Assembly: GCA_965197685.1 (NCBI GenBank)
Contig: CBDANP010000006.1
Location: forward strand, 345,344 to 409,343
DNA from: Dehalococcoidia bacterium
GTDB lineage: Bacteria > Chloroflexota > Dehalococcoidia > Lucifugimonadales > UBA1123
DNA length: 64,000 nt
Reading direction: 5' to 3'
Part shown: positions 3,588-20,279 of the stretch, piece after piece
How positions within the stretch are numbered: the first letter of the stretch is position 1
Layout of the letters: the number at the start of each line of letters is the position of its first letter
Notes under the pieces: generated by a model
The model's input: only the letters and a program-made list of their open reading frames with translations
Databases searched by the model: none
What the model was told of the DNA's origin: nothing
Made by a program: the position numbers and the translations under genes

Positions 3588-4698
3588 TCAGGCCACCGCA
3601 ACCCGCCTTCCTTCGTCGCTGGATTGTCGGATGGCGTCTATAAGGCGATGCAGTCCCACGGCATGGTCGAAGTCGGGTACGCTGGGTACTACGCTGGCCG
3701 TACCCCGGATTGACGCTGCGAACTGGCTGTACAGCTGGCCCACGTTGTAGGCCGCTCCGCCGGGCATTTCCGGAGCGGGATGCAGTTCCGCCGCCGGCGT
3801 CCAGTCCCTGCAGATCATTGCTGCCGCCCCGAGCCCCTCGAATGCTCACCCGCTGCAACTGGGGCGAGTCCGCCGAAACCGCCACCAGCGTCCCCTCTTC
3901 GCCGTAGATTTCCATCCGGTAGCCGCTGCCCGCCCAGGCGACGCTGCCAATCTGCACAGACGCCACGCCGCCACTCTGAAGGTTGCCGCTGACCAGCACG
4001 TTGTCAGGCGACGTAACCGGCAGGTCCCGCCCGGTGTCCGTCTCGCGCCAGGTGGTGGCCTGGGCGCTGACCACGGTAGCCACGTCCGCGAACTCGCCCA
4101 CCACGCTGCACAGCGCGTCAATGGTATGCCCGCAGGCGATTGTCAGCGTATGCGCCCCCAGATCATCCTCCCGCTGCCAGGTCCTGCCCGAATCCCGCGA
4201 CAGCGCTCCCTCGCGCATCAGCCGCACATGACAGGTCATCACCCGGCCCACATACCCATCGGCCACCAGATTTCGCAGGTGGACGATGGCGGGATTGGCG
4301 CGCGCCTGCAGACCCACTGCCGTCCCGACGCCTTGCCGCCGGGCCGCTTCAGCCATCTCGACGGCCTCGGCGGTGGTGCGACCCAGCGGCCACTCGGTGA
4401 AGGTGTGCTTGCCGGACCGCAGCGACGCCATGGTCGGCTCGTAGTGTAATGGCACCCGCAGCGAGATGGTGGCGGCCTCGATGTCGGCATCGGACAGCAT
4501 CCGGTTGTAGTCATTCCACGCGCCGTCCGCGTTGTATGCCGCCATCGCCTCGTCCGCCGACTCCTGTCGCGTGGTGCAGACGGCTGCCAGGTCGAAATGT
4601 GGGTGCGCCGCCAACGCCGGCAGGTGCGCCCGTGGCGACCAACCCTGGTGAATATTCGCCCCAATCAGTCCAATACGAATCGGCTGCTGCGTAGTCAT
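3588..4698 (-). pseudogene. Gfo/Idh/MocA family NAD(P)-dependent oxidoreductase, frame break near 3795-3830
   Basis: N-terminus IRIGLIGANIHQGW ... TFTEWPL Rossmann pattern. The family-like C-terminus (AAYNVGQLYSQFAASIRG...PDFDHAVGLHRLIDAI) is only readable in ORF 3588..3818, a different frame from ORF 3574..4698. The switch lies in a GC-rich cggcggcgg stretch. Confidence 0.7.
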
Positions 4699-4799
4699 GC
4701 TTCACCTCCTGAACCGTGTCCAGACGTCGCGTCGTCTATAATCGCGGCTATCGTACTTAGGATCTCTTAATTTTAGAAGGGTCTTGTGTTAATAGTGAC

Positions 4800-5039
4800 C
4801 TGCATTCGACCCTGTTCCGTGTCGATGTTCAGCGGTGGCTCCCGGTGGGAGCCGGCCTCTCCGGTCCCCGCCATCGTCGACCATTCAGGCACAGGATACC
4901 CCGCCAGGGGTGCCGCGGGAAGGGATGCTGATACAGATAGACGGCAGCCATCACAGGTGGTAGGAGGATTGGGGACCGCAGTTCACGCTGCCGCTGGCGG
5001 TCTCGGCCGAACTGGCATGTGAATCGCAATAGGTTCGCA
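4800..5039 (+). pseudogene. Relic of an rve-type (ISNCY/IS481-like) transposase gene, truncated by the IS1182-family element
   Basis: Translation ...PPGVPREGMLIQIDGSHHRW*EDWGPQFTLPLAV... parallels residues ...RQRMPSEGMLIQIDGSYHRWLGDDGPRFMLLLAV of the intact transposase 7366..8853. Contains an in-frame stop and ends at the IS boundary. Confidence 0.55.
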
Positions 5040-6609
5040 CTAGGAGCCTGTCCGAGTAATACCGTTGGCGAGCTATTGTGGGTATGATGATGGGACTACC
5101 AAGCATGTGGAGCCACCGATGAGCAAGACATACCGTTCCTACGATCCGAACCAGCAGTTTCTGCTTCCGGTAGCAATGCAGGAGTGGCTGCCTCCGGACC
5201 ATCTGTCGTACTTCATCTCCGACATCGTGGATCATCTGGACCTGTCCGCGATCACATCCGTGTACGAGCGGGAGAGTCGAGGCGGCCCGCCCTATCACCC
5301 CCGGATGATGGTCAAGGTATTGCTCTACGGCTACTGTATCGGGGTTGCCTCCTCGCGGCGGATCGCCCAGCGTCTGTGCGAGGACATCGCGTTTCGGGTA
5401 CTTTCGGCCAACAACACGCCGGACTTCAGGACCATATCCGACTTTCGCAAGGATCACCTGTCTGAGTTGTCTGAGCTGTTCCTGCAGGTGCTGGTTCTGT
5501 GCCAGCGGGCGGGTCTGGTCAAGCTGGGACACGTGTCGTTGGACGGGACGAAGGTCAAGGCGAACGCATCGAAGCATAAGGCGATGAGTTACGGACGCAT
5601 GAAGGAGAAGTCGGCTCAGTTGGAGTCTGAGGTGGATGAGTTGCTGCGACGAGCTTGTGAGGTGGATGAGGAGGAAGACCGGCGATACGGCGGGGAGAAG
5701 CGGGGAGACGAGTTGCCTGCGGAGCTGTCCTTTCGTGAAGGTCGGCTGAAGAAGATACGGGAGGCGATGTCTGCGCTGGAAGCGGAGGCTCAGGCTGACG
5801 CGGAGCGGGCGGAGGCTGCGGGTCGTAAGCGTCCGGGTGTTCCGGACGAGAGGGCGCAGCGCAATTTCACCGACGCCGAATCGCGTATCATGCCCGCCCC
5901 CGGAGGTCGGGCATTCGTTCAGGCATACAACTGCCAGGCGGTGGTGGACAGCGCAAACCAGGTGATAGTGGCGGCGCGCGCGACCAACCAGTCCTCGGAC
6001 AAGCGTCAGGCGGCAGTCATGATGGAGGAGACCATAGCCAACTCAGGCGCAGTTCTCCGTGAGTTATCCGCAGACGCGGGCTACTACTCGGCAGAGGCGG
6101 TTGAGAACATTCACGCGCTGGGAGTGGAGCCGTTCATAGCTCCTGAGAAGACGCGCCATGGCAGGGTGGCGCCGCCCGCTCCCCGGGGTCGAATACCCAG
6201 ACATCTGTCGGCCAGAGACCGGATGCGCCGCAAGCTGCGGACGAAGCGTGGCAGAGAGCGTTACGCCTTGCGGATGGGAACAGTGGAACCTGTATTCGGA
6301 CAGGTCAAGCAGTGTCGGGGCTTTCGGCAATTCTTGCTGCGGGGTCTGGACAAGGTGAACGGCGAGTGGCTACTGATCTGCATGGGCCATAACCTTCTGA
6401 AGCTGTTCAGGTCTGGGGTCAGGCCGCCCGCCAGAGCGCGGCTGAAACGACCCGCCGCAAGCGCAAGTAACCCGTCTGAGGTGACGAGCGGAACGATGTT
6501 CGAGAAACAATCTGGACGCTTAACTCTACGAGCGGCAAAGATAGTTGTCGCCGTCCACTGCTTGGACCATACCCCATAATCAATCACCTATACTCGGACA
6601 GGCTCCTAG
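5040..6609 (+). mobile_element. IS1182-family insertion sequence
   Basis: Perfect 19-bp terminal inverted repeats CTAGGAGCCTGTCCGAGTA (5040..5058) / TACTCGGACAGGCTCCTAG (6591..6609) bracket the transposase ORF. No target-site duplication seen. Confidence 0.8.
5119..6579 (+). CDS. IS1182-family DDE transposase
   Basis: MSKTYRSYDPNQQFLLPVAMQEWLPPDHLSYFI...GGPPYHPRMMVKVLLYGYCIGVASSRRIAQ...DFRTISDFRKDHL is the characteristic N-terminal pattern. ATG at 5119 chosen over the longer ORF start at 5065. Confidence 0.85.
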   Translation: MSKTYRSYDPNQQFLLPVAMQEWLPPDHLSYFISDIVDHLDLSAITSVYERESRGGPPYHPRMMVKVLLYGYCIGVASSRRIAQRLCEDIAFRVLSANNTPDFRTISDFRKDHLSELSELFLQVLVLCQRAGLVKLGHVSLDGTKVKANASKHKAMSYGRMKEKSAQLESEVDELLRRACEVDEEEDRRYGGEKRGDELPAELSFREGRLKKIREAMSALEAEAQADAERAEAAGRKRPGVPDERAQRNFTDAESRIMPAPGGRAFVQAYNCQAVVDSANQVIVAARATNQSSDKRQAAVMMEETIANSGAVLRELSADAGYYSAEAVENIHALGVEPFIAPEKTRHGRVAPPAPRGRIPRHLSARDRMRRKLRTKRGRERYALRMGTVEPVFGQVKQCRGFRQFLLRGLDKVNGEWLLICMGHNLLKLFRSGVRPPARARLKRPAASASNPSEVTSGTMFEKQSGRLTLRAAKIVVAVHCLDHTP

Positions 6610-6786
6610 GGAGCTGGCGGCATTTTTGAACCGGGAGGATGTCGGGGCGCGTAGCCGTTCTTCGCATTCACCAGCGACTCATCCTCCACCCTCCGCGCCA
6701 GCACTCTGCGACGTGTTCGATGGCGCCCCTGTTCCCAGCCACTCCTCCTTACCGTCTTCTCCAGACTCGACTCGCTAATCAATCAC
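6610..6786 (+). pseudogene. 3'-terminal relic of an IS66-family element (transposase C-terminus plus terminal repeat)
   Basis: Encodes ...ALCDVFDGAPVPSHS, matching the C-termini AVCDVFRGAPVPSRSL / ALCDVFGGGPVPSRSS of the three intact copies. Ends in CGCTAATCAATCAC, compare CGCTAATCAATTAC. Confidence 0.5.
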
Positions 6787-7290
6787 CTTCATCCAACCGA
6801 ATATAGACTCCACACGCTTCATACCCTTCTGACTCGCCTGGTATCCGGCATGATGGTAGGTAGAGCGCAAGTGCAGACAGGTTAGGACGACACTGGATTC
6901 CGTTTCCTTCGATTCCCAGGCCATAGTTGCGAAGCCATGCGGGGAACCAGAGGCAGCTCCGTTCGATCATGTGATTGAAACATCGAACCGCCAAGGAAAA
7001 CGGCACAGACCCCGCCGGAAGGCCGCGGAGGTTATGCAAAATAACCTCAGGCGTCCAGCCGAATTTTGCTCAATTCCAGCTACGCGGGTAAACTCGTGAC
7101 ACATTCCCTATCGTTGGAGCATCTGGCAACGAAAAGGAACCCGTCTTTGCATTCCTCTGTAGAAACAGGAGCATAACCGATATGATTGCCCAAGCAATTG
7201 AGCGAATCAAAAGCACCTTACGCTCGAGTGTCCTGGATGAATCCGCCACCAAGCAGGGAGTAGTGCTCAAGCTCCTCAGCCTTGCCGGAT

Positions 7291-8928
7291 TGTCGAAGTT
7301 CAGGATAAATGTCAGGGTAAGTGACCAGCAAGAATGTCACCTGCTTGGGTCGCCATGGTATCAGACTACGTTGCTTCCACCTTTCTCCGAGAGGGCGTCA
7401 TCGGTGGACTCTCAGCTTTCAGGTACTTTTTCACCGTATTCCTGTGGACCCCCGTCTCCCGGGTGATGCCTCTGATCGATAGGCCCTTGCGCTTCGCTGC
7501 GTGAACCGCCTCCCACCTTGCTACCTGCTTCGGAGTGGGCTTCCTTGGCAGGGGCGCCGCTTTCTTTCGTTCCCTATAGACGGCTTCGCGGTCGCTCTCT
7601 TCCGCTCTCTCCCTGTCGAGCGCTGCCAGAACCGTCGCCCACCGACTGCCCAAGCCGTTATGGTCCGGCGGTGCATGTGAAGAGTGTCCGTTGACACTGC
7701 GCAGGATGTTCGGATGGGACGGAGCCTCCTGGCTGGGGATGATCTGACCTTCATGTTCAACGACCAGCTCACCGTCCAGTCCCTCGAGCACGTCCACCTT
7801 CGATCCAGCGTAGGTCGGTCGCTCCGTGCCGGGCAGCAGCTGAAGCGTACTCTGTCGGTACTTCACGGTGTTGTCCTTTGCCACCTTGCGACTGTGCCTG
7901 AAGCACAGCGCCCGATCCAGGCATGTCTCTTCGTCCACTGGACGGTAGGCGACTTCAGGTTCCCGCGCCGGTACGCCGAAGCGCTCGTTGAAGGAGTCGA
8001 TGAAGGCCTCCAGAACGATCTTGGCGTCTTCGATGGTGGTCGCGCCCGCGAGTCGAAGCTCGGTTACAAGTCTGTCCTGGAAGGTTCCAGCCACTCTCTC
8101 CACACGGCCCTTGGCCTGAGGAGACAGCGCAAAGATCATCTGTATCCCAAGCTCGTCCATCGCGCGACTGAACTGGGTTGGAGCGCTCGGCAGTCCGCCC
8201 CCGGGTACATGCTTGAAGACGGAGTGTCGGTCTGTGTACAGGGCGATGGGTATCCCATAACGCTGGATCAGACCCCGCATCAGCAGGAAGTAGTCTCGTG
8301 TGTTCTCATACTCACAGAACAGGGCGCTTGCCACCCTGCCCGTGGCGTCGTCCACAGCCAGAAGCAGCATGAACCGAGGTCCATCGTCTCCGAGCCACCT
8401 GTGGTAGCTGCCGTCTATCTGTATCAGCATCCCCTCGCTCGGCATACGCTGCCGACGAACACGATGCTTCGGCGGGCGGCGGCGGCGCGGACTGTTCACT
8501 CCGGCTTCAACCAGTATCCGTCGCAGCGTGCTGCGAGCTATGTCTATACCCTCACGTTCTCTCAGCAACTCGCTCAGGTGGGTGTGGTTGGTTCCTGAGT
8601 ACCGGGTCCGAGCGAGACGCAGCACTTCGGCCTTTGTCTTCTCTGGTGTTGTGTTGGGAGCTCTGCGTCCTCGGTGGCTGTGAGCGAGTGCGGCTGCGCC
8701 ATCCTTTCTGTAAGCCGCCAGAAGTCGCCAAGTGTGGCGCGCGCTCACTCCCATCAGAGTAGCTGCCTGATCTATCGCCATATGCTCCGCCAATAGACTA
8801 TTGAGGATCTGAAGTCTTGTCTGTTCCCGTTGGTTCAACGTCACGTTCTCCATTGTGACATTGTTGCTGAACAGTTAGGTCATGACATTTATGGTGAGCA
8901 ACAACAGCCGGATGGGACACTTTCGACA
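7291..8928 (-). mobile_element. rve-type IS (ISNCY/IS1202-like); boundaries approximate
   Basis: Termini TGTCGAA (7291..7297) / TTCGACA (8922..8928), with repeated subterminal ATAAATGTCA and AATGTCAC motifs at both ends. Boundaries are supported by in-frame restoration of the split host gene. No clear TSD. Confidence 0.55.
7366..8853 (-). CDS. Integrase-core (rve) DDE transposase, ISNCY-like, with extra C-terminal HTH
   Basis: N-terminal HTH (LNQREQTRLQILNSLL...AATLMGVSARHTWRLLAAYRKDGAAALAHSHRGR). DDE core (MLIQIDGSYHRW...LYTDRHSVF...QAKGRVERVAGTFQDRL). C-terminal KRKGLSIRGITRETGVHRNTVKKYL. Confidence 0.8.
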   Translation of the reverse strand: MENVTLNQREQTRLQILNSLLAEHMAIDQAATLMGVSARHTWRLLAAYRKDGAAALAHSHRGRRAPNTTPEKTKAEVLRLARTRYSGTNHTHLSELLREREGIDIARSTLRRILVEAGVNSPRRRRPPKHRVRRQRMPSEGMLIQIDGSYHRWLGDDGPRFMLLLAVDDATGRVASALFCEYENTRDYFLLMRGLIQRYGIPIALYTDRHSVFKHVPGGGLPSAPTQFSRAMDELGIQMIFALSPQAKGRVERVAGTFQDRLVTELRLAGATTIEDAKIVLEAFIDSFNERFGVPAREPEVAYRPVDEETCLDRALCFRHSRKVAKDNTVKYRQSTLQLLPGTERPTYAGSKVDVLEGLDGELVVEHEGQIIPSQEAPSHPNILRSVNGHSSHAPPDHNGLGSRWATVLAALDRERAEESDREAVYRERKKAAPLPRKPTPKQVARWEAVHAAKRKGLSIRGITRETGVHRNTVKKYLKAESPPMTPSRRKVEAT

Positions 8929-10141
8929 TTTCGCAGGTTGTTCCCGAATATACGGTTGGAAGCCGCCGCGTCGATTACGCGCTCAGGCCAGGCTCACCCA
9001 ACGCCGTATTCATCGAGGTCAAACGCCCCAGCGAAAATCTGGAACGACATCAACAGCAGCTATTGGAGTATTGCTTTCAAGAAGGGGTAAAACTGGCCGT
9101 ATTAACCAACGGGCGGACCTGGCGGCTCTATGTCCCCTTGCAAGCGGGAAGTTGGGAACAGAGACGGTTCTTGACCATCGACCTTGAGGACCAGGAACCA
9201 AACATCGTGGAACAGCGGTTCATAGAATATCTTTCTCTGGAAAGGGTGAGTAGTGGACAGGCGGTAAGCGCTGCCGAAGATTTGGTCAAATCGCAACAGC
9301 GAGCCGAAATTATCGACGAAACCCTTGTCACGGCTTGGAAGCAAATCGTCGAAACTCCCGATGAACTCCTGGTTGACTTAATCTCAGAAACTACTGAGCG
9401 CATTTGCGGGTTTAAGCCGGAGCCAGAGTTAGTTGAGCAATTTCTGGCAGGGCGCGCTCATGCCCTAACTGACGCACTTGAGGGGAGTCCCCCGCTGGTG
9501 GTGCCTCGGGAAACCAACGCGCCTCCAGCGAACCGAAAGCACAAAAAAGGGAAGGGCCCCACCCTTCCGATCACTCTGGATCCGCAGAACTCCGCAGACT
9601 TCTTAGACGCCTTGCTACGCACTAGGGAAGCGTGGCTTGAAGTGTCATACAGCGATGGCCGCAGAGAGGTTCACCGCTGGGATGCCTCACGCATGAGTGC
9701 ATCATCGAATGTGATCGGCAACCTGAGAAGCAGGTCGGAGTTTCGAAGCGGAACCTGGCTGAAAAATGGGATCACCAGCCTACGGGTGAGCATTGAACGT
9801 CCGAGAACCAAAGACGCATGATGTCACTATCCTGCAACTCCAGTGTGGCAACAGTAGGCGTCCAGCTTTGTATCGACTGAAATGGAAGACCCTGTGAGCG
9901 AGACCTCGACAAAACGGAAAGCGGAACTCAGCCTTTGAAGTTGGCAGCTGGCTCTCGTTGACATGATAAAAGGAGTGCGAACCCTATCAGCTCCGTGTGG
10001 TAGGGTAACTACCTTGTAAACGACATCGGGCGGCGAGTGTGGGACGACAATGTTCAGGATCGGCAAGACGTCCTGACCGGACTTGCAGGTCCCAAACCTG
10101 TCTATCAATAATGAAAAGTTCCTGCGAAGCGCCAGCCTTCC

Positions 10142-10339
10142 TTACTCGTCATCCGAGGACGGCCAGTTCTCTACACCGTCTCCGTCGAAATCTGATATGA
10201 GAATCTCCTTTGGCGGCGGCTTGTAATAATCTCCGCCGAGCGGCTCGCCTTCCATAAGCGTGATTGCCATACCGAGTAGGGTAAGCATCGCCCACATTAG
10301 CGTCTTTAGGGCGATATTCCAGCCTTCTCTATTCGTCAT
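10142..10339 (-). CDS. Small hypothetical protein with one hydrophobic helix
   Basis: 65-aa ORF. GAGGAAG directly upstream of the ATG. Overlaps the upstream small ORF by 11 nt. Segment LMWAMLTLLGMAITL is hydrophobic. Acidic C-terminus. Confidence 0.3.
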   Translation of the reverse strand: MTNREGWNIALKTLMWAMLTLLGMAITLMEGEPLGGDYYKPPPKEILISDFDGDGVENWPSSDDE

Positions 10340-10523
10340 GACTTCCTCGATGCGGCCTGAGTGGCCAGGTGACTAATTGCCGCAGTTCGGTAGATGCTTC
10401 CTCGTAGCCGCGTGCTATGTCGAGAGCGAGCTGAATTCCCTCGACTGGGGAATTCCTACAGGCTAATTCTTCTGCCTCGTCTAACCAAGTCAATGCTTTT
10501 TCGATTAGCTCTGCATTAGTCAT
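10329..10523 (-). CDS. Small hypothetical acidic protein
   Basis: 64-aa ORF with GGAG 7 nt upstream of the ATG, ~200 nt downstream of hsdR on the same strand. No recognisable family. Confidence 0.3.
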   Translation of the reverse strand: MTNAELIEKALTWLDEAEELACRNSPVEGIQLALDIARGYEEASTELRQLVTWPLRPHRGSHDE

Positions 10524-10723: not shown

Positions 10724-13700
10724 TCATCCCTCTGAAGTCGACGTCTTATAGGTCGCGCTGAACGACCTATTGCTCAGCCAGCGCCGGAAGTCCTCGTTCT
10801 CCGTGTACAGCTTGTAGAGCTCGGCGCCGCACTGGATCGTGCCTATCAGCACATCGTCAAGCGCGCGGTCATGCTCGACTCGAGCGTTCTCCTCGTCTGG
10901 ATGCTGGCGTGCGTTCCGATAGGCGTCCCTGGCCTCAACCTGTTCGGGAATCCCGGCAATGAGTTCACCCACCTGGTCGGCGTCCGTGAACTCGGCGCCC
11001 CACAGACCGTTGAACTCCTCCAGAATGACCGACAGGGGGTTCATCTCCGGTTCCGGTATGTACCCGCCGCCGGACGCCGGCGCGGGATCTATCTCGGCGT
11101 CCTCGTCCTCCAGAAGTATGGCCTCGGTCGCCCGCTTCTCCACCCGGTAGCTGTCCATGTCTATGACCTCGAGGATCCCCTTGGACAGGTCCTCCTCCAC
11201 CGGCGCGGGCAGCTTGGGTATCAGGAAGTTCAGGAAGATGGACAGCTTCTCCCACCCGATGTCCTCATAGGGGAGTATCTGCGCGAGGAAGGCGTATGAC
11301 CGGACGAATCCCTTGGCCTTTCCCTTGAAGTCCACCTGCCCGTCCTCGTCGAGCTCAGTCCGGTACACCTCCACGCAGGAGTCCAGTATCGGGTCGAGGC
11401 TGTCGCGCTCAGCGCCGTCGAGGTACATCCTCACGAGTTCGTCTATCCGCTCCTCGGAATAGACCTGGCAGCCGTCCAGGGCGGCCCTGAGGTCGTGCAG
11501 CTTGTCCGGGTCGGTCTCGTCGGACAGGATGGTGGTGCGGTAGTAGTCGGAGAAGGCGTCCTGGATCGTGTCCGAGTCGTTCATGAAGTCCAGGACGAAC
11601 ACGTCGTGCTTCTTCGGATGGGCGCGGTTGAGCCTGGATAGCGTCTGGACGGCCCTTATTCCGGAGAGGGTCTTGTCAACGTACATCGTGTGCAGCAGCG
11701 GCTCGTCGTAGCCGGTCTGGAACTTGTCGGCGCACACCAGGATGCGGTAGGGCTCCTCCTGTATCTTGTCCGCTATCCGGCCGGAAGGGAAGCCGTTCAG
11801 CGAGGTCTCGGTCACGTTCGCGCCGCCGTACTCATGCTCGCCGGAGAAGGCCACTATTGCCTGGTACCGGCTGCCGCGCTCTTCCAGGTAGCTCTTGATG
11901 GCGTGGTAGTAGTCTATGGCGCGGCGTATGCCGTCGGTTACGACCATCGCCCTCGCCTGGCCGCCGATCTTCCTGGGGCCGGCGACCTTCTCGTGGAAGT
12001 GGTCCATCATGATCTCGGCCTTCATGCCGATGGCGCGCTCATGGCCCTCCACGTAGCGGCGGAGCTTTCTCTGCGCCTTCTTCGAATCGAACTCCGGGTC
12101 GTCCTCTATCATCTTGACCAGGTTGTAGTAGCTGCTTACCGGCGTGTAGCTGCCCAGCACGTCCAGTATGAAGCCCTCCTGGATGGCCTGCTTCATCGTG
12201 TAGCTGTGGAACGGAAGATGTCTGATAGTTCCGTCCGGCTGAGGGTCCGACTCGCCGAACAGCTCCAGCGTCCTGTTCTTCGGGGTGGCGGTGAATGCGA
12301 AGTAGCTGGCGTTGGCGAGCATCCTCTTGGACTCGATGATCCTGTTGATCCGGTCCTCGAAGGTCTCCTCTTCATCCTCTGAATCGCCCGAGGACAGCAC
12401 GCTGGACATTGCCGCGGACGCGCGGCCGCCCTGGCTGGAGTGCGCCTCGTCTATGATGATTGCGAAGTTTCGGTCGCTGAAGTCGCCGCTCATCTCGTCC
12501 AGGATGAACGGGAACTTCTGCACCGTGGAGATGATGATCTTCTTGCCGCCCTCTATGAATTCGCGGAGGTTGCTGGAACGCTCCGCGTGGCCCACCGTCG
12601 CGCTCACCTGGGTGAACTGTCTGATGGTCTCCTCTATCTGCGCGTCCAGAATAAGCCGGTCGGTGACGACGATGATGGAGTCGCAGACCGGAGCGTCGTT
12701 CCTTCGCAGGTCCACCAGCCTGTGCGCCAGCCACGCTATGGAGTTGGACTTGCCGCTTCCCGCGGAGTGCTGCACCAGGTAGCGTTGGCCGGCGCCCTTC
12801 TCCTGGGCGTCCGCGAGCAGCTCACGCACGACGTCGAGCTGGTGATAGCGCGGCCAAATCTGGGTCCTGCTCTTCTTCCTGGTCTTCGGGTCCGTCGTCT
12901 GGATGAGCTGGGCGTAGTTCTCGATGATGTCGGTGAGGTTCTCCCTGGAGAGTGTATCCCTCCACAGGTACTCGGTCATGAGGCCGTCCGGGTTGACGGG
13001 ATTGCCAGCGCCGCCGTCCCTGCCCTTGTTGAAAGACAGGAACCAGGACGCCTTTCCCCTGAGCTCGGTGCAGAACCGGACCTGCTGGTCGTCAACGGCG
13101 AAGTGGGCCATGCAGCGGCCCAGCCTGAACAGGTCCTCGCGCGGATCGCGGTCGCGCTTGTACTGCTCCTCGGCGTCCGCCACGGTCTGCTTGGTGAGGC
13201 TGTTCTTCAGCTCGAAGGTCGCCACCGGCAGGCCGTTGATGAACAGCGCGAGGTCGAGGGCCAGGCCGGTGTTTCTGGCGCTGTAGCGCAGCTGGCGGGT
13301 TACGGAGAAACGGTTCAGGGCGTGAAGTTCCCGCGCCCTCTCGTTGCCGGCGGACGGCGTGGCGTAGAAGAACGTGATGTTGTGCTGCCCATGCCTGACG
13401 CCGTTGCGGAGAACTTCCACCACGCCCCTGTCGGTCACCTGCCGCTTCAGTCTCGCCAGAAAGCGCTGTCTTGTGATGTTGTCGCCGTCCAGCGCGAGCG
13501 CCTCTGTGGTGTCCGGCTGGGTGTCTCTGAGAAAGGCGGACAGCTGCGCCAGGTCAACGCAGTATTCGCGGTCGTAGTCGTTGGAGCTGCCCGGCAGCCA
13601 GCCGGCGCCTGTCATGGAACTGAAGATGATGTCCTCGAGGCCGCGCTCGCTGGTGTCGGTGGCGCGCCTGACGGCGCCCGATTCCCCGGGGATATCCGCT

Positions 13701-13876
13701 TCAGCCTTGGGTTCGGCCTTTACGCTTGGAGATCCGGCGAAGAGACCGCGCCGGGGATTTCTCCACTCGAGGATTTCCGGGATGTCGTCGGTGTCTATCT
13801 CGTCCTCCGGCAGGTCCATGAGCGCTTCGAGCTCCGCTCTCTGATTAGGAGTCAGGTCAGAAACTTTCACTCTCAT
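10724..13876 (-). CDS. hsdR: Type I restriction enzyme R subunit with ~75-aa N-terminal extension resembling the N-terminal part of antitoxin BrnA
   Basis: Canonical HsdR blocks (LALDLALFINGLPVATFELKN, QYKRDRDP, HSAGSGKSNSIAW, IIIDEAHSSQ, FTATPKN, KFQTGYDEP). ATG 13876 preceded by GAGGAGGAAG. Residues 1-45 are MRVKVSDLTPNQRAELEALMDLPEDEIDTDDIPEILEWRNPRRGLF. Confidence 0.9.
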   Translation of the reverse strand: MRVKVSDLTPNQRAELEALMDLPEDEIDTDDIPEILEWRNPRRGLFAGSPSVKAEPKAEADIPGESGAVRRATDTSERGLEDIIFSSMTGAGWLPGSSNDYDREYCVDLAQLSAFLRDTQPDTTEALALDGDNITRQRFLARLKRQVTDRGVVEVLRNGVRHGQHNITFFYATPSAGNERARELHALNRFSVTRQLRYSARNTGLALDLALFINGLPVATFELKNSLTKQTVADAEEQYKRDRDPREDLFRLGRCMAHFAVDDQQVRFCTELRGKASWFLSFNKGRDGGAGNPVNPDGLMTEYLWRDTLSRENLTDIIENYAQLIQTTDPKTRKKSRTQIWPRYHQLDVVRELLADAQEKGAGQRYLVQHSAGSGKSNSIAWLAHRLVDLRRNDAPVCDSIIVVTDRLILDAQIEETIRQFTQVSATVGHAERSSNLREFIEGGKKIIISTVQKFPFILDEMSGDFSDRNFAIIIDEAHSSQGGRASAAMSSVLSSGDSEDEEETFEDRINRIIESKRMLANASYFAFTATPKNRTLELFGESDPQPDGTIRHLPFHSYTMKQAIQEGFILDVLGSYTPVSSYYNLVKMIEDDPEFDSKKAQRKLRRYVEGHERAIGMKAEIMMDHFHEKVAGPRKIGGQARAMVVTDGIRRAIDYYHAIKSYLEERGSRYQAIVAFSGEHEYGGANVTETSLNGFPSGRIADKIQEEPYRILVCADKFQTGYDEPLLHTMYVDKTLSGIRAVQTLSRLNRAHPKKHDVFVLDFMNDSDTIQDAFSDYYRTTILSDETDPDKLHDLRAALDGCQVYSEERIDELVRMYLDGAERDSLDPILDSCVEVYRTELDEDGQVDFKGKAKGFVRSYAFLAQILPYEDIGWEKLSIFLNFLIPKLPAPVEEDLSKGILEVIDMDSYRVEKRATEAILLEDEDAEIDPAPASGGGYIPEPEMNPLSVILEEFNGLWGAEFTDADQVGELIAGIPEQVEARDAYRNARQHPDEENARVEHDRALDDVLIGTIQCGAELYKLYTENEDFRRWLSNRSFSATYKTSTSEG

Positions 13877-14147
13877 ACTTCCTCCTCTCACTGGGCGTGG
13901 CCCTTCGAGCGCTTATTATCCTGCCGACTTCGCCCCCGAATCTCGGGTCATACTCGGGCAGCGTGTGGATGACGATCAGTGTAGCCATGCCCACCATTCC
14001 GGTGGTCTGAAACCTTCGTTCATCGGGGTTTGGGTCGTCCTCGGTTACGGCCAGCTCGTCCTGAAACGCGAGCATGGCGGTCTCGAAGCTGATTCGGTGT
14101 TTTCGTATGTTCTCGCTGTTCTTGTCCTCGTCCCATGTCCAGTACAA
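13857..14147 (-). CDS. brnT: BrnT-family (DUF497) ribonuclease toxin
   Basis: MYWTWDEDKNSENIRKHRISFETAMLAFQD...GRIISARRATPSERRKYE fits the DUF497/BrnT pattern. TTG start with GGGGAG upstream. 20-nt overlap with the hsdR start. Confidence 0.8.
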   Translation of the reverse strand: MYWTWDEDKNSENIRKHRISFETAMLAFQDELAVTEDDPNPDERRFQTTGMVGMATLIVIHTLPEYDPRFGGEVGRIISARRATPSERRKYESESF

Positions 14148-14165: not shown

Positions 14166-15593
14166 CTATGATGTTGGCATCTCTATCTCGATCTCGCCCG
14201 CGCCGCGGACGTCCAGTTTTCCGGTGACGACGTCGGCAATGAGCCGGGTCCGGTATTCCTGCATCAGGTCTATCTGGCGGTGAGCATGGTCAATCGCGGT
14301 GTCGATGTCTGCTGTTGTCTTGTCCAGGTATCCAACAATTTCTAGCTGTTCAGAAATAGAGGGGAAAGGAAATCGATGTGCTCTCAACTTTTCTCCCGTC
14401 AAATGCATGATGGTACTGAGTTGACCATCATTAAATGCGTTTCCTACCGCCGCCGCACGTAGGACGTAATACATGAAGCGCTGAACATCTCGTTCAGTGT
14501 TGAGAGGCCTAAGTCTGTGCAGTGCCTTCTGGAATCCACATCTGTCAAGCCCTCCAGACCAGATAGCACTTCGGCCCACCTCGCCACCCTCACATACAAG
14601 CAAGTCGCCCTGCTCAACTGTATAGCGGCTGTACTCATCAGGCGCAATATCCATCGTGGGAAGGTCCCGTATATTAATTCTATCCCACTGGACATCGATA
14701 TTCCGCAGATAAGGGAGTGACTGGTATCCGGTTATGGTTTTAGAATCTAGCATTTTGCCGAGACACTGTGCGTATCTGTACCTCAAAGCCGCAATGTTCC
14801 AATGAGCTGGTACATCACCAAGCCACTCGACGCCGGAGTGCTTGAGAGGAGCGTTGGGATCGAGGCCCCGGGTAACGGCCTGATTGATGACAGCCTGTTT
14901 CTGCTCGGTCAGCAGCTCGATGAGTCGCTCCTTGGCGCTGATGTAGCTCTGGATGCGACTGTCGGCGTGGTCGAGATAGCGCACGATGGCGGTCTGTTCT
15001 GCCAAGGATGGGACTGGAAGTGGCTCCGCAGCGAGCGCAGCATAACGAAAGTCTGTAGACCTCTCACGAACCCCCTTAGCGAGTGCGGCAATCCATCGGC
15101 TCCTAGCCATCTCCCGTATCGCGAAAGCATAGTAGTAAGCATTCGCTCGATACTCTGGCCTACAAACAGAGTAAACGGGCGTACCCTTTCCGTCCGAGTC
15201 AGAGACTCCGACAGCACCTGCGAAGGCGTCCATAGCATGGATTACTAAATCTCCCACTCGAATACCTTGATAGCCTATCTCCTGCAGCGACTCAGTGAAC
15301 CCCTCCGTCCTCCGATTCTTTCGCAGAGTTACAACCCCATCTCTAAAGCATGTTACGACGTCGTCCGTGTCTCTAACGGAACGGTCCATCTTCTTTAGCA
15401 GTCGCTTCCCACGGTCCACGGTCCAATGTGCTGGTATGTGTTCAAGCCACTTCATTCCGGAGTCTTTGTAAGAAGGGTAAGGGTTTATCAAAATGGACAG
15501 ACTCCTCTGGTCCGGGGCATATCCTAAAGAGTAGGTATTAGGAGGCTTTTGACCTGAACTAGGATCCAACACCCGAGTCCTGTGGGAAGACAT
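14166..15593 (-). CDS. hsdS: Type I R-M specificity subunit (two target-recognition domains)
   Basis: Two conserved spacer/coiled-coil blocks (LPVPSLAEQTAIVRYLDHADSRIQ...LIELLTEQKQAVINQAVTRGLD and FPFPSISEQLEIVGYLDKTTADID...LMQEYRTRLIADVVTGKLDVR). The start may be the internal Met at 15455 (MKWLEHIPAHW). Confidence 0.85.
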   Translation of the reverse strand: MSSHRTRVLDPSSGQKPPNTYSLGYAPDQRSLSILINPYPSYKDSGMKWLEHIPAHWTVDRGKRLLKKMDRSVRDTDDVVTCFRDGVVTLRKNRRTEGFTESLQEIGYQGIRVGDLVIHAMDAFAGAVGVSDSDGKGTPVYSVCRPEYRANAYYYAFAIREMARSRWIAALAKGVRERSTDFRYAALAAEPLPVPSLAEQTAIVRYLDHADSRIQSYISAKERLIELLTEQKQAVINQAVTRGLDPNAPLKHSGVEWLGDVPAHWNIAALRYRYAQCLGKMLDSKTITGYQSLPYLRNIDVQWDRINIRDLPTMDIAPDEYSRYTVEQGDLLVCEGGEVGRSAIWSGGLDRCGFQKALHRLRPLNTERDVQRFMYYVLRAAAVGNAFNDGQLSTIMHLTGEKLRAHRFPFPSISEQLEIVGYLDKTTADIDTAIDHAHRQIDLMQEYRTRLIADVVTGKLDVRGAGEIEIEMPTS

Positions 15594-17190
15594 CTTCTAA
15601 GAGTTCCTGAAATACGTCGGGCGTCTCCCGCAATGCCGGAATCAAATGGGTCAGTGTGAAGCCCTCGCGCCTGTTGCCTAAATTAGCGATCCGGGTCTTC
15701 GCCCGAATGTATCCGAACAACTGCTGTGTTGTGTCCTTGATATTGTCCGGCATCTGTGAATCGTTCAGCAATTCCTGTCTCTTATTCAAAACTGCGTCCG
15801 TCAGACTCTCCTTCCCATTTCGGCTCAGAAAAGTCCGCAGGACCTCTGGGTCATACAAATAATTCTCCAGCTCCCGTCTTCGTAGAACACATACTCCGGC
15901 TTCAATGCTCTGAGTTCTCTCATCGTCAGTCATGTCGTCGCGGTCAATCACTGACCATACCGTGGTGCCCTCTGTTACAGCCTGGAGAACCCGGATTAGA
16001 TTCTGACTGTTCTTAACCTCGGTGGAGCTTCCGTAGGAGATAAAGAGTGTCTCAGGGTGAATATCGGCGAAGAGACGATTGTAACAGGCGGCGTCAAAGC
16101 CCTTGTCGGCCTCGAACTTCTTACCCTCGCATATTACGATGTTCTCAGGAGCTATCAGGTTTGAGAGGTCGTCAAGAGCCACATTGTATGCGTTCTGCCA
16201 GAATACGCGGTTAGGGACATGTGGACGAATTACCGCAGGAAGGTCAAAATCGTGAGTCCCGAAGTCCAAGAACGCCACGTTGCCTTCCTGTTTCATTAAC
16301 TCGTATGCCTCCCTGACGAATCCTATGGAGTGAGTCGCAAGCCACAACTGGGACTCTTCCGGCACAAGCTTGAGCATCGCCTTGAGAAGAGAACCATGAA
16401 GAGCTGTATTGACGTGTGCTTCCGGTTCGTCAATGCAATATATGGCATCTTGGTATTCGGGACGCTTCACGAATATGTCAAGCAGTAAGTCAAATGCTGC
16501 CTTCTCTCCCCCCGATAGGTTTTTATAATGAAAATCTTCGGCTGTCCCTTTAGAAAAGCGGAAAGTGCCGGCGTCCTGGATTCCACCAAAGTCTTGAAGC
16601 CTAAGTGTCGGGTCAGTGAAGAGGCCTTCCATCGCCGTCTGGAGGTCGCTGAGAAATTCTCTGCGATACCGTCCAATGGTCATAACTTCGGGCGCATCCC
16701 TGTCTATGTCCGCCTGACGTCTCCAAACTAAACGTCTGTAATTGTCGGACACAGCCTGGTCAGCATCAATGATCCGTTGAAATCTATCGGACGCGTGTGC
16801 CGACTCGACAGCCTGAATCGCATCGAGGCGAAAGTCGGACTCATTTCTGTAAGCAGACCGTATGTTGAACGCCGCAGACCATTCTTCCTGGGTCAGCGCC
16901 TGGCGAGAATGAAACTTGACCTCTATCCTCTGTGCTATTTCATGGGTGTTCTGCGCTCCATCATCTGAACTCCGGCTATAGTACCCCCCGTAGTTGTCGT
17001 TTCCTGAAACACTATAATTGCTCCTAGCAGACCATGACTTCAGCAGGAAGGCGTCGAAAAGAGAGGACTTCCCCGACCCATTTGGCCCAATTAAGACGAC
17101 GACGCGGGCGGATTCGGGGATGTCGCAAATAGTGAGGTCGTTAAAACGCTTGTAGCCAGGTGGTTGTATACGAATGGTCTTGATTCTCAA
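15559..17190 (-). CDS. Fused ABC-type ATPase + DUF4435/Toprim (OLD-like) protein, PARIS AriA-AriB-like / restriction-linked ORF
   Basis: Walker A GPNGSGKSS, signature LSGGEKAAF, Walker B IYCIDEPEAHV, ATHS. C-terminal IVICEGKKFE...WSVIDRDDMTDDE...RRELENYLYDP resembles DUF4435. Sits between hsdM and hsdS with a 16-nt gap to hsdM and an overlap with hsdS. Confidence 0.75.
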   Translation of the reverse strand: MRIKTIRIQPPGYKRFNDLTICDIPESARVVVLIGPNGSGKSSLFDAFLLKSWSARSNYSVSGNDNYGGYYSRSSDDGAQNTHEIAQRIEVKFHSRQALTQEEWSAAFNIRSAYRNESDFRLDAIQAVESAHASDRFQRIIDADQAVSDNYRRLVWRRQADIDRDAPEVMTIGRYRREFLSDLQTAMEGLFTDPTLRLQDFGGIQDAGTFRFSKGTAEDFHYKNLSGGEKAAFDLLLDIFVKRPEYQDAIYCIDEPEAHVNTALHGSLLKAMLKLVPEESQLWLATHSIGFVREAYELMKQEGNVAFLDFGTHDFDLPAVIRPHVPNRVFWQNAYNVALDDLSNLIAPENIVICEGKKFEADKGFDAACYNRLFADIHPETLFISYGSSTEVKNSQNLIRVLQAVTEGTTVWSVIDRDDMTDDERTQSIEAGVCVLRRRELENYLYDPEVLRTFLSRNGKESLTDAVLNKRQELLNDSQMPDNIKDTTQQLFGYIRAKTRIANLGNRREGFTLTHLIPALRETPDVFQELLEDVFPQDSGVGS

Positions 17191-17206: not shown

Positions 17207-19189
17207 CTAATTTTCCAGCATGATCTCTGTCAACAGCCCTTCGGACTCCCTTTCCAATGCCCTGATGTCACTTATGATCTCGGAGAGTGGTCGCATCGGA
17301 TCGGGCTTGTAGAAGTGCCGCGTGAAGCTGATCTCGTAGCCGATCTTAACACTGCCGGGGTCGTACCAGACATCTGGAGCGTAAGGCAGTACCTCGCGCC
17401 GCAGGAAAGCGTCTATGCCGCCCTCTTCCAGCAGCGGCGCCTGCTCGGTATCCCGCAGGTCGTTGTCGCGCTCGTACTCGACCACCACGGCCCTGTCGCC
17501 GATATTCCTCTCGAATAGCCCACGCAGCGGATCGGGAGCCGTACCCCGCCCGTGAATCCTCTTGATGACCGCGGGAGCGTCCTCAGATCGCTCGGCCGTC
17601 GCCCTGAGTTCCCTGATCTCCCTGGCGTTATAGGTGCGCTCGGGGTCAATACCCACCAGTCTCAGCGGACGGTCAACCGTCACCTTCCAGTACCCGAACG
17701 CCTCGTTCGGGAATATCCTGGACTGCTCGCTCTCCTCGAAGCCCATGAACGTCTCGCATATCCGGTCGATGTCCTCGTCGGATAGTTCGCAGTTCTTCTG
17801 TCCCAGGTTTCTTCGCAGCGGCGTGAACCACTTGCTGGCGTCTATCAGCTGCACGTATCCCCTGCGATGTTCCGGCTTCCTGTTGGACAGAATCCAGACG
17901 TAGGTTGCGATGCCGGTGTTGTAGAACATGTTCAGCGGCAGAGCGACGATGGCCTCCAGCCAGTCGTTCTCGATGATCCAGCGGCGGATGTTGCTCTCGC
18001 CCGAACCGGCGTCGCCGGTGAACAGCGAGCTGCCGTTGTGGACCTCCGCGATCCGGCTGCCGAGCGGCGTGTCCTTCATCTTGCTGAGCATGTTGGCCAG
18101 GAACAACATCTGACCGTCGCTGACCCTGGTCACAAGCGAGTACTCGGGATCCCCGGCGTGGCTGATGACGAAGCGCGGGTCGCTCATGCCCTTCTTGCCG
18201 CCCATCCTGGCGAGGTCGTTCTTCCAACTCTTGCCGTAGGGCGGATTGCTCAGCATGAAGTCGAAGGTCCGCGGCCAGTTGGATTGGGATACCGCGGCGT
18301 CGTTCGACAGCGTGGAATGCTCCGGCCCGCCAACTATGTTGTCGGCGGAGTTGCCCTCCCCCTTGAGGAGCAGGTCGGCCTTGCAGATAGCGTAGGTCTC
18401 GGCGTTTATCTCCTGGCCGTACAGGTGGGTGGACACCCGCTTATCGCGCCGCGAGGTCCTGCAGCGTCTGTTCAGCCACGGTCAGCATACCGCCCGTTCC
18501 AATCGCACCGTCGTACATCAGGTAGGTCGTGGACCTATGGAATCGGCCACCGGGTCGAAGATGAGCCGGGACATGAGCCGCACGGCGTCCCTGGGCGTCC
18601 AGTGCTCGCCCGCCTCCTCGTTGTTCTCCTCGTTGAAACGGCGCACCAGGTCCTCGAATATGGTGCCCATCGCGTGATTGTCCAGCCCTGGAATCACAAT
18701 TTCCCCGTCGCCGTCCAGGACTGGCTCGGGAGACAGGTTGACGTCGGGCGAGGTAAACATTTCGATCAGTGTGCCGAGAGCGTCCGCGGCCGACAGTCTC
18801 GGGATCTGGTTGTGGAACTCGAAGTTCCTGAGTATGTCCTGGACGTTGGAGGAAAAGCCGTCCAGGTACGCCTCGAAGTTGGCCCGAAGCTGCTGCCGGC
18901 TGCTCGTGTCCAGCAGGCCCTTCAGCGTGAAGGGCGACGCGTTGTAGAAATCTTGGCCCGCCGCCTGCCTGAGCGGTCCGTCCTGGGCGACGATCCCCGC
19001 GTCGTCCAGCATCTTCTTCCGATTCAGGACGGCTTCCTTCGTGGGCTCAAGGACCGCGTCGAGGCGTCTGAGAACCGTCATGGGAAGCAAGACGTCCCTG
19101 TACTTGCCGCGCACGTACAGGTCGCGCAGCACGTCGTCGGCCACGCTCCAGATGAAGTTCGATATTCTGCCTATCTGCGGATCCTGCAT
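17207..19189 (-). pseudogene. hsdM: Type I R-M DNA methyltransferase subunit, two apparent frame breaks
   Basis: The HsdM_N-like part (ISNFIWSVADDVLRDLYVRGKYRDVLLPMTVLRRLD) is in ORF 18518..19189. The motif I segment TYLMYDGAIGTGGMLTVAEQTL is readable only in a third frame between ~18445 and ~18530. Motif IV LSNPPYGKSWK and the rest are in ORF 17207..18436. Confidence 0.85.
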
Positions 19190-19343: not shown

Positions 19344-20279
19344 CTATGGGTGGGCATTGAATACCTGCCTTCGATGCCAGTCGAGGTATTCGGGAGCGGG
19401 ACGGTGGCCGCTGTCCAGTCCGGTGGGTACATAGAGACTCCCACCTTCATACTGGCCGATAGCGATTTCTTTACCGTGGCCGGTCAGATAGCTGGATACC
19501 AGCACCCTGAGATCCTCATCCACTGTGAATGAGCCCAGATCAAAGAGTTTGTCGTGGAGTACGCAGAGCGCCAGCCCATTGCGGACCTCCGGGGGTCCAC
19601 CATACGCGTGCCAGTGAATGTGGGCCGCCTCCAACCCGACAGTATGTTCCTGCAGTTCCAGAGACAGCTTGCAGACAGCGCACCTGCCATCGTAGGCGTC
19701 GAGTACCCGTGCCCTGAAGGCGCCGTCACGCCTGCGGCGGCGTATCGTCAATTCCACCATCTGGTCGTCGTCCACAAATGGCGTGTCATTGAATCCGGTC
19801 GCCTGAAGAATATCGTCGTGCATTGAATCCGGAAAGTGTGATTCGAGAAGGGACAGAGCTGCTCGCCACGCCAGATCTTGATCGTCTTGAAAGGTCTTGT
19901 AGATCGGTTCGGTCAGACCGCCTCTGATACCGAGTTCTCTGAGACTGGAGACATGAGCATTTCCTGAGGAGTCCAAGCGAACGATGTCCGGTCTGTCGAT
20001 CTCCCACAGTCCATCATGCTGCATTCGCCAGAACGGGTACGCGGTGGGAACACTCCTATGATGCGGTCCAAAGAGTCGGATCAGCCTCGTGAGTTCATGG
20101 TGGACGGTGTCGAATGATGCTAACCGTGGCTCAGCGCTCAGACATCTGCCAATCGCCCATATTGCAAGCATGGGTTTATACGGCGCGCGGACGCCATATC
20201 TGCTCCACACGCGAAGGTTCTGAAACTTCGCTAGGATGTCCTCTTCCTCAGAGTTCATGTCCCAACCCATGCTGGTCAA
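19344..20279 (-). CDS. SBD-HNH endonuclease (ScoMcrA-type, phosphorothioate-DNA-dependent type IV restriction-like)
   Basis: N-terminal RAPYKPMLAIWAIGR...FGPHH...YPFWRMQHDGLWEI. C-terminal HNH: FRARVLDAYDGRCAVCKLSL...LEAAHIHWH...NGLALCVLHDKLFDLG. Confidence 0.7.
   Translation of the reverse strand: MTSMGWDMNSEEEDILAKFQNLRVWSRYGVRAPYKPMLAIWAIGRCLSAEPRLASFDTVHHELTRLIRLFGPHHRSVPTAYPFWRMQHDGLWEIDRPDIVRLDSSGNAHVSSLRELGIRGGLTEPIYKTFQDDQDLAWRAALSLLESHFPDSMHDDILQATGFNDTPFVDDDQMVELTIRRRRRDGAFRARVLDAYDGRCAVCKLSLELQEHTVGLEAAHIHWHAYGGPPEVRNGLALCVLHDKLFDLGSFTVDEDLRVLVSSYLTGHGKEIAIGQYEGGSLYVPTGLDSGHRPAPEYLDWHRRQVFNAHP

Follow-up and report, generated by a model that had tools for sequence, protein, structure and literature searches.

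The window analysed here is a stretch of 64,000 nucleotides from a Dehalococcoidia bacterium (contig CBDANP010000006.1 of assembly GCA_965197685.1, positions 345,344 to 409,343), which carries on its minus strand a type I restriction-modification (R-M) operon in the order HNH_2 – hsdM (split) – AAA_21/DUF4435 ATPase – hsdS – brnT – hsdR. The present study concerns the last two genes of this operon, a toxin gene of the BrnT family that overlaps the start of the gene for the restriction subunit HsdR, and the N-terminal extension of that subunit, which is homologous to part of the antitoxin BrnA. BrnT is a small RNase of the RelE/BECR fold, and brnT-brnA (Brucella abortus prototype; PF04365/PF14384) is normally an overlapping two-gene type II toxin–antitoxin (TA) operon. 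The features of the pair are as follows.

13857..14147, minus strand: brnT, BrnT RNase toxin gene, 96 aa (PF04365 and PDB 7vd7 chain A)
13857..13891, minus strand: brnT-hsdR coupling junction (sequence read directly)
13739..13876, minus strand: BrnA-type putative toxin-binding module, HsdR aa 1-46 (hhalign against BrnA; profile against 7vd7 chain B)
13664..13738, minus strand: linker, HsdR aa 47-71 (variable, low-complexity, predicted disordered)
10724..13663, minus strand: canonical HsdR body, aa 72-1050 (PD-(D/E)xK nuclease, SF2 motor, C-terminal helical domain)

The product of brnT matches the Pfam family BrnT_toxin PF04365 over the whole model (positions 1-77; E=1.3e-21, 77.1 bits against a cut-off of 34.5) and chain A of PDB 7vd7, a 94-aa 'toxin' (E=1.6e-12), and it keeps every residue that is invariant among 30 BrnT homologues. 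The assignment of 13857..14147 to BrnT in a preliminary description, made from the sequence alone, is therefore borne out. The gene starts at a TTG codon (14147), 8 nt past GGGGAG, and stops at TGA (13859..13857), and the ATG of hsdR (13876..13874) with its Shine-Dalgarno sequence GAGGAGG (13887..13881) lies within its 3' end. The resulting overlap is 20 nt, in agreement with that description, so that the layout of a type II TA locus, with adjacent and co-oriented genes for a toxin and its partner coupled by overlap, is present in the window. The same pair was examined in homologous loci, denoted by L-numbers, which were compared with the window and chosen through the presence of the module. 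The brnT open reading frame (ORF) opens with Leu and not with ATG in the window, in L001 (5730) and in L088 (about 2690-3017), the codon being TTG in the window and L001. Lack of an ATG start is probably the reason why brnT was missed by the gene caller in L088/L089, and surveys of called proteins may therefore undercount brnT beside fused hsdR genes.

The hsdR ORF (10724..13876, minus strand; stop codon 10724..10726) encodes a protein of 1050 aa with the Pfam domains HSDR_N (aa 181-275), SWI2_SNF2/ResIII (aa 342-574) and a T1R_D3-like domain. It is matched by the PADLOC model REase_I (E=8.5e-42) and by TIGR00348 hsdR (E=1.5e-58, 198.9 bits, which is under the curated cut-off of 284.55 of that model). 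The nuclease motif D...ELK, the Walker A motif GSGKS and the DEAH motif are all intact in the translation, and local alignments of the core with many HsdRs give identities of 56-93%. Relatives free of the extension begin with M(T)TDTSERGLE, which corresponds to aa 72-81 of the window protein, and the extension is therefore placed at aa 1-71. No in-frame ATG, GTG or TTG occurs in the window sequence between M20 and M92, and a start at M92 or beyond would cost the protein the conserved N-terminus of HsdR.

The extension consists of the module, made up of a helix (aa 10-20) followed by the motif DEIDTDDIPE..W.N..RG.F, and of the linker at aa 47-71, after which TDTSERGLE begins at aa 72; the low-complexity linker described earlier as preceding the usual HsdR N-terminus is thereby located. 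An AlphaFold2 model of the window HsdR, computed with a 117-sequence alignment, has the short helix at aa 10-20 and ordered enzyme from about aa 74, with predicted local distance difference test (pLDDT) values below 50 for aa 26-72 and the tail not docked on HsdR. Antitoxin segments that acquire their fold on the toxin typically show such disorder with a short helix.

Homology of the HsdR extension to BrnA

The first 45 or so residues of HsdR had been described as BrnA-like, and the likeness is upheld by profile comparison. When aa 1-81 of the window protein were compared by hhalign with 17 aligned BrnA proteins of the canonical kind, all of them genome-recovered neighbours and true PF14384 members (E 2e-14 to 6e-16), a probability of 99.25% was obtained (E=5.8e-20, 59% identity). 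Residues 1-49 pair with residues 1-49 of BrnA, whose toxin-binding segment is a helix followed by the pattern ..D.IDTSDIPE..W...RG.F.., and the alignment ends precisely at the strand of the ribbon-helix-helix (RHH) domain (KQQITLRLD...). The C-terminal RHH of BrnA (ITLRLD..V..WFK...GYQT.IN..LR) is absent from HsdR, in which the linker and then HsdR proper follow column 49, and a full-length BrnA hidden Markov model matches only the N-terminal part of the extension.

A module profile (A1) built from 11 N-termini reached 99.9% against canonical BrnA in profile-profile comparison. Searched against 1.84 billion representative proteins, it matched 2095 of them at E<=1e-3; among the best 146 of these 2095, PF14384 BrnA_antitoxin is present in 22 (best E 1.1e-18) and CopG_antitoxin in eight. 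Positions 11-49 of the module profile also match chain B of PDB 7vd7 (E=5.3e-9), the 44-residue 'antitoxin' fragment of an entry whose other chain is the 94-residue 'toxin'. The window thus encodes homologues of both members of a solved complex of a toxin with an antitoxin fragment, the tail of HsdR being the one on the antitoxin side. Six residues (L19, I27, D28, P33, R43 and G44) are invariant both in the module alignment of HsdR and P0007-type proteins (the latter are described below) and in canonical BrnA, and D31 is invariant in BrnA and nearly so in the module alignment.

Searches of Pfam and NCBIfam with HsdR aa 1-80 gave no match, and PF14384 was absent at E<=10 whether aa 1-80, aa 1-60 or the full protein was used. 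The relationship of the HsdR N-terminus to BrnA accordingly stands in profile-profile comparison (99.25%) and not as a match to the Pfam model. In two canonical BrnA proteins tested, PF14384 (68 positions) covered residues 25-87 and 7-87, and the miss on the HsdR tail would be explained by a model that spans the C-terminal RHH, which the window fragment lacks. An interpretation of the missing Pfam and NCBIfam match as non-homology was set aside, since PF14384 reaches through the RHH and profile-profile comparison gave 99%. Domain-based surveys, for which Pfam (its BrnA model included) and NCBIfam are silent on the module alone, miss it. An RHH segment, a second brnA-like module and a second brnT were found nowhere in the 64-kb window, as the earlier report of neither a separate brnA nor an RHH had indicated. 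As judged from its sequence, HsdR is a protein with a BrnA module and does not itself belong to the BrnA family, since both the RHH and a PF14384 match are absent.

Conservation, linkage and exchange of the module

Relatives were collected in a search with full-length HsdR, of which the best 120 clusters at 90% identity were considered. The N-terminal module is present in 45 of these (lengths 979-1072 aa, 42 of them above 1000 aa); the other full-length clusters (about 976-1028 aa) open at TDTSERGLE, and a few shorter ones start further in. At least five distinct linker types join the module to the HsdR core in the homologues. Over 46 fused HsdRs, conservation of the module (aa 6-47) is on a par with that of the N-terminus of the core, with top-residue frequencies of 0.78 and 0.80 and entropies of 0.87 and 0.86 bits, respectively, whereas the linker is far more variable (0.58 and 1.70 bits).

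Genomes with the fusion are labelled Dehalococcoidia/Chloroflexota and Latescibacterota, and the fusion occurs in long-read chromosomes as well as in short-read scaffolds (for example L171, a 4.3-Mb chromosome, L172 and L086). A genome search for further brnT genes placed directly before an extended hsdR was successful; the closest relatives L171 (HsdR 92-93% identical to that of the window) and L172, as well as L086, share with the window the order hsdS-brnT-hsdR. A deletion or misjoin at 13.7-13.9 kb, by which assembly or sequencing could have created a false fusion, has a negligible probability. Apparent frameshifts elsewhere in the window, in hsdM, cast some doubt on sequence quality, but the unbroken fusion ORF in 45 protein clusters and many independent contigs effectively refutes such an origin.

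Variants of the fused gene were also observed. P0121 has two tandem modules before the HsdR N-terminus. L011, which is without brnT, has a 67-aa ORF consisting of the module only (3983-4183) just ahead of a module-bearing hsdR (4050-7355). Short ORFs of L046, L066 and L073 (Latescibacterota, around 3980-4222) comprise the module, the linker and the first HsdR residues, ending in ...TDTSEHR*, and look like truncated stubs of fused hsdR genes.

The overlap with brnT recurs in other loci. It is again 20 nt in L001, L171 and L172 and 14 nt in L086; brnT of canonical two-gene loci ends 14-20 nt inside the module gene, in the same geometry as in the window, and this range holds for genome loci in which the module is fused to RHH, HsdR, TcmP or the P0007 domain. 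Of 80 metagenome loci, 69 leave enough space upstream for a brnT, and in 60 of these the gene immediately precedes the module; the JGI metagenome scan yielded canonical BrnA loci only and added no HsdR fusions. An intact brnT precedes the fusion in about half of the HsdR-fusion loci examined, the state of the gene being as follows.

brnT intact and overlapping hsdR: window, L006/L171, L172, L012, L023, L027, L059, L086, L088/89
brnT frameshifted or partial, or locus of low quality: L090, L070, L004
brnT reduced to its last 16-20 codons: L061 (E=1e-6), L002/3 (E=1e-5)
brnT undetectable or with very weak traces only: L011, L057, L068, L082, L084, L087, L005

The copy retained in L090 is frameshifted. 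A brnT beside a module-less hsdR was not found among the examined loci, all of which were selected through the module. Where remnants of brnT stand before a fused hsdR, the coupling must have come first and the toxin been lost later, and this apparent direction of decay fits the logic of TA systems. Other two-gene cassettes occupy the interval between hsdS and hsdR in the brnT-less loci L087 (1231-2915), L084, L005 and L002/L003 (5427-5967), namely Peptidase_M78 (HTH-ImmA type) with DUF4411, or DUF433 with a 105-aa ORF without family annotation. The hsdS-hsdR junction thus looks like an exchange slot for varied cassettes, that of brnT included. In a brnT-less lineage of the Latescibacterota type, the conserved Trp of the module is replaced (..LEGSN..).

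Pairwise identities indicate that the toxin gene and the module travel together. L012 and L023 are 72% identical in BrnT, 78% in the module and 55% in the HsdR core, and the window and L023 are 54%, 61% and 81% identical, respectively. The closest kin of the window cassette are stand-alone loci of the P0007 type (BrnT 76-79%, module 78-80%), in which the DNA of the junction is nearly identical. From these comparisons, brnT and the module appear to be inherited as one cassette, independently of the HsdR core. A mirror-tree-style correlation of BrnT, module and HsdR-core identities over eight fused loci was weak and without significance (Spearman 0.32, p=0.10), and the claim of cassette exchange rests on the individual discordant pairs.

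The module is also carried by proteins other than HsdR, each with brnT directly upstream. Its partner in L013 (3806-5077) is TcmP, a 'three-Cys-motif partner' protein (TIGR04474, E=3.4e-49), and in L152 (650-1480) and L154 it is joined to a helix-turn-helix (HTH) with a NucS_C-like endonuclease domain. In the P0007-type loci (L001/L007, 6001-6552; L009), brnT is followed by a protein of 170-197 aa composed of the same module and linker together with an alpha/beta domain of about 110 aa with the conserved pattern ..GGYRLYV..RFGY.R.N..VYANGDFSDPEGRF..YKFWPDD..AMRYAAKVVRSAYESKA. The P0007 domain had no Pfam or NCBIfam match, and its model (pLDDT 70.8) retrieved nothing from the PDB at E<1e-3 with Foldseek. 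An apparent fusion of the module to a DctP solute-binding protein in L058 was rejected as a probable artefact of stop-to-stop reading, the DctP part appearing by eye to have its own lipoprotein-type signal sequence.

HsdR as a putative tethered antitoxin

Profile homology, the correspondence with 7vd7, the presence of the module in 45 of 120 HsdR clusters and the overlap of the brnTA type strongly support the view, first advanced in the preliminary description, that the toxin-binding piece of BrnA was grafted onto HsdR, without the RHH and without a separate brnA. In the mechanism proposed here, HsdR aa 1-46 would serve as the toxin-binding N-terminal peptide of BrnA, hung on a flexible linker of about 25 residues before an ordinary HsdR. 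BrnT, made from a weak TTG start immediately upstream of hsdR, would be caught 1:1 by the tail and silenced, which would place two BrnT molecules on each R2M2S complex. Because the RHH of BrnA is absent, the pair would have no autoregulation of its own, and its expression would follow the hsdM-(ariAB)-hsdS-brnT-hsdR operon. If HsdR or its exposed tail were destroyed, not made or lost, the BrnT RNase would become free and growth arrest would ensue; phage-induced shut-off, proteolysis of HsdR and deletion of hsdR are possible causes of such release.

Two mutually compatible effects may have been selected. The pair could be a guardian that adds an abortive layer to restriction, as in PrrC/EcoprrI and PARIS, or an addiction device that makes an otherwise dispensable hsdR hard to delete. 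The preliminary description had likewise suggested that loss, proteolysis or inhibition of HsdR may free BrnT as an abortive-infection fail-safe or as an addiction device, and the proposal of release made here is based on analogy with type II TA systems and PrrC/EcoprrI. That the tail binds and neutralises BrnT is probable on the sequence evidence. The full statement, in which brnT-hsdR is a TA pair with the restriction subunit as its antitoxin and with a guardian or antidote role, appears about equally apt to be right or wrong, and binding, neutralisation and trigger would all follow from homology to the 7vd7 complex combined with analogy. The model has few parts, namely binding, neutralisation and release on loss of HsdR, and under it the wiring of restriction to an abortive layer is legible in the sequence.

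Among known systems, PrrC/EcoprrI is the closest match for the proposed working of brnT-hsdR. The gene prrC lies between hsdS and hsdR, and an RNase gene is similarly found within a type I R-M operon here, brnT standing between hsdS and hsdR in the window, L086, L171 and L172. The PrrC RNase is kept latent by the type IC enzyme EcoprrI and is freed upon attack on that enzyme (PMC12707154). The two systems differ in the silencing element, which in the window is an antitoxin peptide fused to HsdR, whereas PrrC associates with an unmodified enzyme. They also differ in that T4 Stp triggers PrrC while no comparable trigger is known for brnT-hsdR, in which the association of BrnT with HsdR is itself deduced. 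Proteins of the PrrC/RloC kind pair an ABC-ATPase-like N-domain with an anticodon nuclease domain; the 96-aa BrnT is unrelated to PrrC, no PrrC-related family having been reported for the window protein in the Pfam, NCBIfam and PADLOC scans.

PARIS is a guardian that backs type I restriction through an RNA-targeting abortive response (PMC12707154). The guardian logic is common to both, and a fused homologue of AriAB lies in the window operon; however, PARIS senses Ocr directly via its ATPase scaffold and stands on its own as a system of two proteins, with no tether to HsdR. In type IA/IB systems HsdR is a specific target of ClpXP, restriction enzymes could conceivably be degraded at the direction of phage, and brnTA is listed with the TA systems found alongside the type I families in the immigration control region (ICR) defence island of E. 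coli (PMC12707154). BrnT-like genes also occur upstream of CoCoNuT systems (PMC11090510).

With brnT-brnA itself, the pair shares the toxin family, the toxin-first order, the placement of the 3' end of the toxin gene over the start of its partner and the N-terminal segment of about 46 residues of that partner. It differs in that the partner is without the RHH, and hence without autorepression, in that the module is the tail of a 1050-aa type I subunit and in that the pair lies inside an R-M operon. Single-chain fusions of BrnT and BrnA are known (PMC11980606) and, like other fused TA genes, indicate that the pair can be covalently rearranged and that TA domains behave as modules. In such fusions, however, the toxin is joined to a complete antitoxin with its RHH or HTH, whereas in the window the toxin is separate and the toxin-binding part alone is fused to an unrelated enzyme. 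Antitoxins can thus be split and their toxin-binding half reused on other proteins.

The brnT-hsdR coupling is real and conserved and combines two known kinds of system, the type II TA system and the R-M guardian. A search of the literature, in which most subscription journals are not included, yielded no account of an HsdR fused to a BrnA module. Abortive-infection back-ups are often placed behind restriction in cells. To our knowledge, cross-talk between restriction and an abortive back-up is established in very few cases, essentially PrrC and PARIS. Should the guardian role be correct, the pair would represent a class of R-M guardian that is new and seemingly widespread, occurring in uncultured Chloroflexota and in other phyla.

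Several observations weigh against HsdR being a functional antitoxin. Taken singly, the window sequence gives no more than a marginal match to the antitoxin fragment of 7vd7 (E=0.029), strong values being obtained with profiles. About half of the examined HsdR fusions are without an intact brnT yet keep the module, which in those loci may have another role, persist neutrally or in slow decay, or neutralise brnT paralogues elsewhere. HsdR is large and presumably stable, so that the lability expected of an antitoxin is not evident. The frameshifts in hsdM may mean that this copy of the R-M system is inactive, in which case the addiction aspect alone would be left. A scan of 10.4-20.6 kb for promoters and terminators gave sites no more numerous than in shuffled sequence, with no above-background signal between hsdS and brnT-hsdR.

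Among the other explanations, pure addiction, in which the tethered antitoxin serves only to make hsdR and the R-M operon undeletable through post-segregational killing and without any sensing of phage, deserves the most attention, even if it is rather unlikely to be the whole account. Among the R-M genes, hsdR is the one whose loss does no harm, maintenance is the classical role of TA pairs, and the cassette of brnT and module is mobile-like, swapping between HsdR cores and stand-alone loci. The intact hsdR of the window, in an operon with a frameshifted hsdM and with two transposase genes just downstream, is the pattern expected if hsdR is protected. Lineages that dropped brnT have nonetheless kept the R-M operon, and stabilisation is escaped when the toxin is lost first; the presence of a PARIS-like guardian in the same operon points to a defence context. 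The position of an RNase gene between hsdS and hsdR parallels that of prrC. PrrC is a phage-triggered guardian (PMC12707154). Addiction alone, if true, would explain how an otherwise dispensable hsdR can be stabilised.

That the extension is a functionless remnant, the 5' end of a brnA joined to hsdR by recombination and kept for its ribosome-binding site, start codon and translational coupling, is improbable. It would account for the persistence of the module where brnT has been deleted or swapped for Peptidase_M78 with DUF4411 or for DUF433 with a small ORF, and the replaced Trp of the brnT-less Latescibacterota-type lineage could mean relaxed constraint. A bare initiation region would not, however, hold about 46 residues at the conservation of the enzyme core beside a drifting linker, nor would it share the invariant residues L19, I27, D28, P33, R43 and G44 with canonical BrnA. 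An intact brnT in which every family-invariant residue is kept is present in the window, L171, L172, L086, L088 and further loci, and an intact toxin with no other antitoxin nearby needs a neutraliser. Still less credence is given to a regulatory or accessory role of BrnT in the restriction complex, in which it would either modulate the assembly or activity of HsdR or place an RNase at the point on foreign DNA at which the motor stalls. The fixing of the tail through a flexible linker before the nuclease domain (HSDR_N, aa 181-275) would suit such a part, and the occurrence of the module on TcmP and on the HTH-NucS_C protein suggests that the activity of the partner matters. The BrnT homologues that accompany the module are, however, overwhelmingly found in ordinary two-gene TA loci, and the HsdR fusions work, or at least persist intact, without brnT.

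If HsdR is indeed a tethered antitoxin, a wider reading can tentatively be offered, in which the N-terminal peptide of BrnA is a portable 'toxin leash' that makes antitoxins of HsdR, TcmP, the HTH-NucS-like nuclease and the alpha/beta domain of P0007-type proteins, BrnT reporting on the integrity or state of the leashed protein. Were this so, type I restriction would possess a covalently wired guardian, and removal of HsdR, whether directed by phage or brought about by ClpXP-type degradation of translocating HsdR, would lead to RNase-driven abortive infection.

Operon neighbours and flanking genes

Upstream of brnT in the direction of transcription, the operon comprises the following genes.

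14166..15593, minus strand: hsdS (Pfam Methylase_S, two stretches)
15559..17190, minus strand: fused AriA-AriB (PARIS-like) ATPase-Toprim gene (PADLOC AriAB; Pfam AAA_21 and DUF4435)
17207..19189, minus strand: hsdM methyltransferase, frameshifted (three-frame translation; tblastn)
19344..20279, minus strand: HNH_2 gene, 311 aa (PADLOC HNH)

The hsdS gene is intact and ends 18 nt upstream of the brnT start. The AriAB-like protein of 543 aa, encoded between hsdM and hsdS (PADLOC AriAB, E=1.3e-30), has no counterpart gene in the closest relatives L171 and L172. Its gene is operon context and not part of the brnT-hsdR pair; by sequence similarity, its product is a second candidate guardian in the same R-M operon, and the presence of this PARIS-like gene shows that the locus collects guardians.

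Two compensating frameshifts, located within roughly 18,430-18,530 and separated by about 90 nt, divide hsdM into two ORFs. Three-frame translation and tblastn with the HsdM of L003 place motif I for binding of S-adenosylmethionine (AdoMet) (YLMYDGAIGTGGML) out of frame; the motif (TYLMYDGAIGTGGMLTVAEQ) is readable in another frame only, the main frame having stop codons. L171 and L172 have an intact hsdM (620 and 563 aa, respectively), and the frameshifts in the window could reflect either genuine inactivation or an error of sequencing.

Just upstream of hsdM, the HNH_2 protein is matched by PADLOC HNH (E=8.7e-20) and weakly by a type IV methyl-directed restriction endonuclease; a gene combining ScoMcrA-SBD and HNH_2 occupies the same place in L171. 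A few kb downstream of hsdR lie two transposase-like genes (5065-6579, plus strand; 7366-8853, minus strand), one with DUF772/DDE_Tnp_1 and the other with HTH_23 and a weak rve_3 match, and the ORFs between them and hsdR (9063-9821 and 10142-10523) have no family match. The R-M locus adjoins mobile elements.

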